Below, piece by piece: positions 1,087 through 14,340 of a stretch of 64,000 nt of DNA. This stretch comes from a virus (Duplodnaviria; Heunggongvirae; Uroviricota; Caudoviricetes). The stretch lies in IMG/VR virus record IMGVR_UViG_3300028603_000003, one strand, 5' to 3'. Below the pieces are notes generated by a model. That model was given only the letters and a program-made list of their open reading frames with translations. It had not been told where the DNA came from and ran no database searches. The position numbers and the translations under genes are program-made. Positions within the stretch are counted from its first letter, which is position 1. Each line of letters starts with the position of its first letter.

Positions 1087-1186
1087 AATTTCTGGTTGGA
1101 CTCGAACCAACGGCCTAACCTTTATTCCCGGCATTTTGGTCCTTCACCTTGAGGGAGGTCTGCTCTACCAACTGAGCTACAGCAAT
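1087..1186 (-). tRNA. tRNA-like RNA with a 34-nt anticodon loop (intron-containing, pseudo- or decoy tRNA)
   Basis: ATTGCTG TA GCTC AGTTGGTA GAGC A GACCT [34 nt] AGGTT AGGCC GTTGG TTCGAGT CCAAC CAGAAAT T. D- and T-arms are canonical, the acceptor stem has one G-A mismatch, and no CCA is encoded. Confidence 0.65.
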
Positions 1187-13077: not shown

Positions 13078-14340
13078 ATGGAAATAAGCAAATCACTTTA
13101 CGAAACTGTCTCGTCAATTCTTCTTAGGGAGTTTGACGAAACTATCACATGGAACAAATTGGGAGCAAAGCTGTTCCAAGTCTGGAACAGCTTTGAAGGT
13201 AATGAGCCTGTAGAGTCTACAGCAAAATCTATTACTATGGAGACAATCACTAGAGCAGACCCAACACAAAACAAAAAATATTCTCTATGGATTGCAACTA
13301 GAATTTCTAATAAAGACCCAGATTTAGTTCAATTGTTAGATGAAAGCAAATCCGCATCAATGATCGCGGTTGTCAATAATGTTCTTAGATACTTTGACAC
13401 ACTAAAGAATAACAGAAAAATTTCTGGCGCAGACGCAGACATTAATAGATACAAGTCTTTCAAAGAACTAGCAGAAAAGACTGAAAGCTTTCCAGAAGAA
13501 GAGATTATCTCAAATAAGTCTAAGAAACGTGATATTGCAAAGGAAATGCAAAAGCAAGCTGAGTTGTTCCTTAGCACACCTGAATATACAGTAATCATTC
13601 CAAAGACAGAAGAGGCTTCTTGTTATTATGGACAGAACACGAAGTGGTGTACTGCCGCTACTGATGGCCGCAACATGTTTAAAGCATATTCGAGCGATGG
13701 AAATCTCTACATCATCATCCCGAAGAATCCCTCATATGACGGGGAAAAGTATCAGGTTCACTTTAATCCAATTTCTATGATGGACGAGCTTGACGAAGAG
13801 GTAGAATTTGAAACGATGTTGGAAAAGTTTCCAGAGTTCTTCGAAAAGGTTGCGGAGGCTGGAGAGTTAGAAGACAGCGATTACGTTGTATTCATGAAGA
13901 ACGAAGTTAAACAAAGGATGATTAATAATTTCAATGAATTTATTAATCAAGCTGCATATGACATCGAGCAGGACGCAGAACAAAACGATGAAGGATACGC
14001 AGAATACATTGCTTCAGAATACAAAGACGAAGACGGAGAAATAGATTGGGAAAGAGGCTATGAGGAAATGCCATACTCGGATTACAACGATGAGCTTAAG
14101 TGGTGGTTGTCTAAGCTCATAGAAGACTACAAGTTTTCTGACCTGTCCGATCTGGCCGAGTGGTTGAAGCAATATTCTCATTATGAAGAACCCGTAACCG
14201 CACTATATGTGGGGAGATTCTTTAAATGGGTAATCAACGAGAAAGCAGTTGAAAATCGAGATGGCTCGTGGTATACAGACGCTCTTCGAGGTAAAGTACG
14301 CGAGCTTTCTGTTAATAAAAAAGACGGAAGCTTGTACTAA
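13078..14340 (+). CDS. PcfJ-like domain protein
   Basis: EEASCYYGQNTKWCTAA...NMFKAY...GNLYIII...KYQVHF motif, recalled from PcfJ-like domains of large phages; acidic C-terminus. Confidence 0.45.
   Translation: MEISKSLYETVSSILLREFDETITWNKLGAKLFQVWNSFEGNEPVESTAKSITMETITRADPTQNKKYSLWIATRISNKDPDLVQLLDESKSASMIAVVNNVLRYFDTLKNNRKISGADADINRYKSFKELAEKTESFPEEEIISNKSKKRDIAKEMQKQAELFLSTPEYTVIIPKTEEASCYYGQNTKWCTAATDGRNMFKAYSSDGNLYIIIPKNPSYDGEKYQVHFNPISMMDELDEEVEFETMLEKFPEFFEKVAEAGELEDSDYVVFMKNEVKQRMINNFNEFINQAAYDIEQDAEQNDEGYAEYIASEYKDEDGEIDWERGYEEMPYSDYNDELKWWLSKLIEDYKFSDLSDLAEWLKQYSHYEEPVTALYVGRFFKWVINEKAVENRDGSWYTDALRGKVRELSVNKKDGSLY

Follow-up and report, generated by a model that had tools for sequence, protein, structure and literature searches.

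A candidate tRNA-scaffolded RNA with a conserved module in place of the anticodon loop in uncultured phages

The minus strand of a 64,000-nucleotide (nt) stretch of a Caudoviricetes virus (IMG/VR record IMGVR_UViG_3300028603_000003), referred to here as the window, contains at 1087–1186 an odd transfer RNA (tRNA) gene with a greatly enlarged anticodon loop. The gene is real, and comparison with its relatives suggests that it is very probably a functional, unspliced tRNA scaffold carrying a conserved module. Judged from the family alignment, the oversized loop is a folded module of 27–30 nt that replaces the anticodon loop, and it is common to approximately 90 predicted tRNA-shaped RNAs from unrelated uncultured phages. 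A decoy function of this module in counter-defence is proposed tentatively.

The element and its family

The Rfam tRNA model matches exactly the span of the element on the minus strand (E 8.5e-8) and places the insert in the anticodon loop, and the family model R1 gives it 103.7 bits, with the element belonging to the training set of that model; ARAGORN without intron mode does not call it. The preliminary description, made from the sequence of the window, is accurate as to the frame: the D arm, the T arm, a 5-nt variable loop, and a 5-base-pair (bp) anticodon stem (1160–1156/1121–1117) are all present, the acceptor stem has a single mismatch (G.A), AAA stands where CCA would be encoded, and AAGGT occurs twice. 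The loop at 1155–1122 is indeed 34 nt long, but it is not the unstructured loop implied there, since the family alignment reveals a folded module. The single-sequence fold of the element is ordinary (z 0.15), and the structure is visible only in that alignment. The surrounding intergenic stretch of 328 nt is identical in four recorded assemblies, one of them possibly the source of the window itself, while a fifth assembly, from a variant strain, differs within the element at two positions, namely by a change in the bulge and by another that turns U2-A71 into U.G with the pair kept; an assembly error is thus ruled out.

The family was collected in several scans. The first covered viral contigs, required a D arm and a T loop 40–70 nt apart, and left the middle unconstrained; it returned several insert classes, among which the insert of the window is shared by 13 distinct sequences. 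Later scans of viral, metagenome, and genome contigs brought the family to 81 distinct aligned members (mean identity 70%, minimum 52%), to which the counts out of 81 below refer. A core-only pattern of 25 nt matched 47 viral stretches, 45 of them within a tRNA frame. Eight further complete members that were held out score 91–97 bits with the family model, while everything else, including ordinary tRNAs and the other insert classes, reaches 65 bits at most. The search for a conserved loop structure in related phages that had been suggested for this element therefore finds one, in the form of the module, across approximately 90 members.

The order of the module is stem P2, UCA, an optional extra hairpin, hairpin P3 (GGY, NAAGG, RCC), an A-rich linker, YGCH, the 3′ strand of P2, and a bulge. 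The extra hairpin is tolerated at one fixed point and is carried by L040, L087, L150, L159, L160, L170, and L194. Counted as sequences and not as independent events, compensatory double-sided changes number 26, 15, and 6 over the three pairs of P2, with one broken cell in 243, and 30–55 for each of acceptor pairs 1–6, in which 96.6% of the cells are paired. The Y:R pair of P3 is UA in 37 members, UG in 30, CG in 14, and CA in none, and AAGG is invariant. For all predicted pairs together, 92% of the cells are paired versus 27–47% in slid-partner controls (0 of 500 shuffles), and the top pairs by mutual information with average product correction coincide with the predicted ones. The top half of the tRNA (7-bp acceptor stem, D loop, and T arm) is maintained by compensation, and in one subfamily, the anticodon stem has shrunk to approximately 2 bp plus an internal loop.

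The module and the tRNA core are likely to fold as one unit. GCC at 46–48 is found in 81/81 members, including all 14 that were not selected for it, versus 12 of 898 ARAGORN tRNAs at the same loci. The invariant G of YGCH may pair with the C of UCA, which would leave its invariant C free for a tertiary contact; past this C-G pair, an internal CAU:AUG pairing has no covariation in the family alignment.

The element is found in one copy per genome. Its carriers include T4-like phages (gp23 in 6 of 21), an 83-kilobase (kb) group with an RNA ligase 71% identical to its counterpart in Limnohabitans phage DC31, and phages of 34–38 kb; in three 34-kb phages that are 92–96% complete, it is the sole tRNA-like gene. 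No cultured carrier was found, because BLASTN of the element and the inserts of two other subfamilies detected the module in none of 50,697 phage records, and in nine cultured phages with Rnl5, Limnohabitans phage DC31 among them, the family model gave nothing but ordinary tRNA scores. The family is also nearly absent from bacterial genomes: a pattern scan of 185,579 prokaryote genomes gave four matches, comprising one chance match and three members on phage-looking contigs of metagenome-assembled genomes with tRNA clusters, two of them with Rnl5. L159 and L160, contigs of 211 kb and 226 kb from metagenome-assembled genomes labelled Sediminibacterium and Dependentiae, have tRNA arrays, Rnl5, and the element and are probably phage contigs binned as bacterial. 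Phage-encoded transfer-messenger RNAs (tmRNAs) share arrays with the element at L151:1835-2192, of the permuted betaproteobacterial type, and at L160:872-1285.

A pseudogene in decay, a duplication scar, or an assembly error had been considered for the window, and together these have a negligible probability. The copy of the window does have one acceptor mismatch and no CCA, and a few broken copies occur elsewhere (L242:1610-1695, without a T arm after fusion to the next gene; L162, L174, and L191, with the 3′ half only). Decay is, however, refuted by the approximately 90 members with family-wide compensatory changes, by the identical assemblies, and by the 98%-related phage L001, which retains the element with paired changes. 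The double AAGGT, from which the scar was suspected, is private to the copy of the window (1/81).

Splicing, decoding, and charging

The preliminary description also offered a short intron at the canonical position 37/38. Removal of the 27 nt gives, as stated there, a 73-nt sequence that ARAGORN recognizes as tRNA-Glu(CUC) with C33, the same CC-CUC loop start would arise in 32/81 members, and an RNA ligase is frequent in carriers. Across the family, however, any single excision yields a 5-bp stem and a 7-nt loop with U33 and purine 37 in only 1/81 members, and at least four anticodon-stem pairs are in register in only 31/81. C33 is rare, being present in 29 of 1476 ordinary tRNAs (2%). The spliced product has C34, C11-G24, C13-G22, G46, and C47 and therefore lacks the Glu identity set, which in E. 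coli is U34, U11-A24, U13-G22:A46, and a missing residue 47 (PMC9976931), and the phage of the window already encodes tRNA-Glu(UUC). Conservation of the supposed intron exceeds that of the acceptor and anticodon stems. The intron reading was rejected; a protein-spliced intron is very improbable. In the intron mode of ARAGORN, the members receive many different anticodons (His, Glu, Thr, Arg, Asn, and others). A group I intron was rejected as well, the insert of 27 nt being too short for a P3–P9 catalytic core and having no Rfam match.

The 3′ end of the element differs from that of its neighbors. At the 53 loci that have two or more ordinary tRNAs, CCA is encoded by 11/53 elements versus 359/440 neighboring tRNAs (Fisher p 9e-19, uncorrected for kinship), and where most neighbors encode it, 9/42 elements do. 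In the phage of the window, 8 of 10 scored tRNAs end in CCA. All four discriminators occur in the family (A 37, U 28, G 8, and C 8), and acceptor pairs 1–6 are free, so synthetase identity is not conserved. With encoded CCA mostly lost and acceptor identity free, the element is probably not aminoacylated and non-decoding. Relative to a functional elongator tRNA, it has the top half of the cloverleaf with its conserved tertiary bases and has a 34-nt structured insert in place of a 7-nt anticodon loop with U33 and purine 37, and neither discriminator nor acceptor pairs hold a conserved synthetase identity. Its T-stem pairs predict an ordinary, weak-side affinity for EF-Tu of approximately −9.5 kcal/mol (values from PMC3239215); an EF-Tu anti-determinant was rejected, the T stem being within the normal range.

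Candidate partners and functions

Clustering of neighboring genes revealed no conserved adjacent gene; the top cluster looks like HNH-type endonucleases from a reading of the sequences. TROVE (3/22 carrier genomes), DUF2828 (1/21), and the CCA-adding enzyme (4/22) are not linked to the element and neither is PTH2; DUF2828 goes with inserts of the ACAGCAA type. When the complete 83-kb carrier G003 was compared with six other carriers, the Rnl5/DRB0094 RNA ligase was the only gene with a homologue in all. Rnl5 is present in 12/18 carrier contigs of at least 60 kb, versus 1/22 control phages chosen for tRNA-Lys and 2/15 chosen for other inserts. It is found in 9/10 carriers that are at least 60% complete and within 10 kb of the RNA in 7/14.

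This distribution suggests that the RNA could serve a phage RNA-repair ligase (Rnl5 or Rnl2-like) as its RNA subunit or mimic the substrate of that enzyme, by analogy with Y RNAs and Ro60, and the related Rnl2-like ligases of the window's phage and G068 agree with such a role. The three near-complete 34-kb carriers speak against it, as they lack Rnl5 and match neither ligase query, as do the nine cultured Rnl5 phages without the RNA, and RNA-repair genes cluster with tRNA arrays anyway (PMC7824862). A ligase partner is accordingly the least probable of the four functions weighed here and is regarded as rather unlikely.

The element is instead proposed to be a phage RNA on a tRNA frame that is neither spliced nor used in decoding; it would be co-transcribed with neighboring tRNAs and excised by the host tRNA-maturation nucleases. 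The tRNA fold would protect it, and the RNA would usually not be aminoacylated. The module, with the AAGG loop, the junction bases, and C47, would be the working part and bind one conserved partner. This partner would most likely be a host tRNA-handling factor, because the carriers are very different phages with no obligatory phage gene in common and imply many hosts. The function placed first, though held with less than even confidence, is counter-defence, in which the RNA would act as a competitive ligand for tRNA-cleaving or tRNA-sensing defense proteins alongside spare tRNAs and RNA ligase. It is ranked first because the element sits among spare tRNAs and RNA-repair genes, and the tRNA arrays and RNA ligases of phages have been interpreted as countermeasures against tRNA-cleaving defenses (PMC7824862; PMC11455837).

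The interpretations offered in the preliminary description thus fare unequally: a tRNA mimic is supported as a class, and the intron, the pseudogene, and the duplication scar do not. Sensors of uncharged tRNA read the CCA end. The suggested decoy for such sensors is weakened because this end is mostly lost from the family, and a decoy for anticodon nucleases is possible.

Next in order, and unlikely, is binding of the same RNA to the ribosome. The elbow of the tRNA would occupy a tRNA site, and the NAAGGR loop would pair with the anti-Shine–Dalgarno 3′ end of 16S rRNA, so as to bias or protect translation. The loop with its next base reads UAAGGG in 28 members, GAAGGA in 23, GAAGGG in 13, and UAAGGA in 7, complementary to CCUUA at the end of 16S rRNA; a purine occupies the R position in every case, and the ribosome is conserved across the many implied hosts. 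However, the complementarity spans only 5–6 nt, the R base already has a partner in a covarying stem, and the next triplet is AUG in only 38/81 members (ACG in 22, UUG in 11, and UCG in 8), hence not a start site. Related mimicries were tried and rejected: a mini-mRNA with a Shine–Dalgarno sequence and AUG, since the start triplet is not conserved; a CsrA-type GGA loop, broken in 44/81; and mimicry of 23S helix 35a, with a best score of 12.4 versus a shuffled 95th percentile of 12.1 (members 17.6–25.2), which is not significant over 12 tests. No match to 16S, 5S, tmRNA, RNase P, or 4.5S RNA was found.

A compact invariant unpaired core, a pseudoknot, and an optional peripheral hairpin are typical of riboswitches and ribozymes. 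The module could accordingly be a ligand-binding aptamer or a small ribozyme that gains stability from the tRNA carrying it, such as a sponge for an immune nucleotide or a self-cleaving mimic of damaged tRNA. It has a compact core with many invariant unpaired bases, the optional hairpin, and a possible 2-bp pseudoknot of the loop GG with CY, paired in 96%. The pseudoknot, however, shows no double-sided change and is broken in six members, no Rfam riboswitch or ribozyme matches at E up to 1, and the core-only scan did not find the module free of a tRNA frame. An aptamer or ribozyme is therefore placed after the ribosome and ahead of a ligase partner, and is also unlikely.

Several points weigh against a conserved scaffold that serves as a counter-defence decoy. 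Anticodon nucleases are diverse and patchy, a poor fit with a module invariant across many hosts. The search patterns account for part of the conservation of the core (1.59 bits per position versus 0.32 for acceptor pairs 1–6), although the 14 members that were not picked by their core keep the same bases without variation. The host enzyme could add CCA post-transcriptionally, and 14/81 members still encode it. Among the carriers compared, no obligatory phage partner gene was found. The enrichment of Rnl5 is confounded by habitat and lineage and is uncorrected for kinship, it does not extend to the three 34-kb carriers, and the ligase near the element in the window's phage is Rnl2-like and not Rnl5; Rnl5 is thus enriched but not obligatory and, because of the confounding, only a lead.

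In a broader form, held just as tentatively as the decoy function, the element may be a natural cassette that uses a tRNA scaffold to express and deliver a small RNA effector, the conserved module inhibiting a host tRNA-targeting defense or engaging the ribosome. If true, this would add a new, RNA-only class of phage effectors, present in unrelated phage groups and able to function where the phage has no tRNAs of its own. The element is relevant to the questions of why tRNA-like genes are found in phages and whether there are RNA decoys against tRNA-targeting immunity. Such genes are skipped by tRNA finders or given arbitrary introns and anticodons and so escape notice in phage annotations. 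An RNA of 100 nt whose core is invariant and which occurs in T4-like, 83-kb, and 34-kb phages is cheap to synthesize and test.

Genomic setting and comparison with known systems

The window is part of a T4-like phage with a major head protein, portal, terminase, and tail sheath, whose closest cultured capsids are approximately 60% identical. The minus-strand order is the CAU tRNA, a 6-nt gap, the element, two hairpins, and a PTH2-like open reading frame (ORF) (Table 1). The CAU tRNA is probably Ile2 and has C4-G69 and C5-G68; at its place, L001 has a different gene, tRNA-Ile(UAU). No terminator-like site was found between the CAU tRNA and the element, and sigma70-like sites lie at 1451–1423 and 1660–1632; the element is likely co-transcribed with the upstream tRNA. 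A close homologue of the PTH2-like ORF was not found beside other members, and it is not a conserved neighbor of the family. The Rnl2-like ligase lies 8.4 kb downstream of the element, and DUF2828 is 6.3 kb away.

Table 1. Coordinates of the element, its parts, and adjacent genes in the window.
Feature	Position	Strand	Remarks
tRNA-scaffolded RNA gene, entire	1087–1186	−	100 nt to the discriminator, no encoded CCA; Rfam tRNA 47.3 bits
Acceptor stem, 5′ strand	1180–1186	−	Pairs with 1088–1094; pairs 1–6 vary freely with compensation, G7 invariant
D arm	1162–1177	−	Pairs 12-23 and 13-22 invariant; 10-25 broken in 16/81 and 11-24 in 24/81 members
Anticodon stem, 5′ strand	1156–1160	−	Pairs with 1121–1117
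Module stem P2, 5′ strand (CCC)	1153–1155	−	Pairs with GGG at 1129–1127
UCA junction strand	1150–1152	−	U and C in 81/81; extra hairpin right behind in some members
Module hairpin P3 (GGY stem, NAAGG loop, RCC)	1138–1148	−	
A-rich linker and YGCH strand	1130–1137	−	
P2 3′ strand (1129–1127) and A-rich bulge (1126–1122)	1122–1129	−	Bulge of 4–5 nt separates the module from the anticodon stem
Variable loop	1112–1116	−	Ends in invariant GCC (C47, uncommon in ordinary tRNAs)
T arm, canonical	1095–1111	−	
Acceptor 3′ strand (1094–1088), discriminator U (1087), AAA for CCA (1086–1084)	1084–1094	−	
CAU tRNA, canonical	1193–1268	−	CCA encoded; 6 nt upstream of the element, same strand
PTH2-like ORF	605–946	−	Downstream; PF01981 E 7e-4, below cut-off

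The two tandem hairpins at 961–1079 (−), which separate the element from the PTH2-like gene, have a CWGCAA motif, are conserved in L001, and resemble the ACAGCAA inserts of other tRNA-like genes adjoining DUF2828; in the window's phage, DUF2828 is at L244:16156-17544. Past the start of the window, ARAGORN calls ten additional tRNAs in the same phage (L244:12285-19279), including an odd Phe(AAA). This region also has other elements with a T arm near 13850, 14957, and 15819 and genes for DUF2828, dCMP deaminase, and the Rnl2-like RNA ligase.

The tRNA-like genes with ACAGCAA-type inserts form a second large class, many of them adjoining DUF2828 (L011, L022, L046, L055, L056, L063, L073, L075-L077, L116, and L153:1495-1616). 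Erwinia phage Kaldavass has one of them, with the annotation tRNA-Lys and a length of 122 nt, and removal of the insert near position 29/30 would restore a Lys(UUU) arm. Further insert classes that recur in viral tRNA-like genes outside both families are those of L052/L120, L032, L064, L121, L018/L036, and L065. In the small phages L233, L234, L237, L239, L241, L243, and L092, short repeated hairpins with a GYGACA...GGAGAG core lie upstream of the element, up to four per genome, with no Rfam match.

Among known RNAs, no Rfam family other than tRNA matches the element, and a description of this family was found neither in Rfam nor in the literature, the latter covered without most subscription journals. 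The element shares with canonical class I tRNA (RF00005) the acceptor stem, D loop, T arm, U8/A14, G15/C48, G18/G19, the 5-nt variable loop, and a place within tRNA arrays, whereas it has no 7-nt anticodon loop or synthetase identity, its CCA is mostly unencoded, its lower D stem is relaxed, and its C47 is invariant. Introns, eukaryal and archaeal at 37/38 or bacterial group I in anticodon loops, likewise add sequence to the anticodon loop, but here there is no common excision product and the module is integrated with the scaffold.

Mimics of tRNA are already a known kind. The YrlA/Y RNAs with Ro60 (RF02553; PMC4201824) are also non-decoding bacterial or phage RNAs in which a tRNA-like domain is joined to a separate conserved module, but the element has the normal D-then-T order, a free acceptor end, and no GNCGAA motif. 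A Ro60/TROVE gene within approximately 4 kb, which was looked for as the mark of YrlA, does not accompany it, as the TROVE and DUF2828 counts above indicate. A weak YrlA match was rejected; at 22.7 bits (cut-off 69), it extends over two tandem genes, which is a known type of false positive (PMC4201824). The species I and II RNAs of phage T4 (rnaC and rnaD) are comparable as stable RNAs of unknown function in a phage tRNA cluster, but they have no module and do not score with the family model. In tmRNA (RF00023), a tRNA-like top half is also kept and the anticodon arm replaced, while the element, at 100 nt, has a full D arm, no conserved G3.U70 or CCA, and no tag reading frame. In engineered tRNA-scaffold expression, a cargo RNA replaces the anticodon loop, and the tRNA frame provides processing and stability. 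The element has this same architecture, with the cargo on the anticodon stem, and differs as a natural one whose cargo is fixed and conserved.
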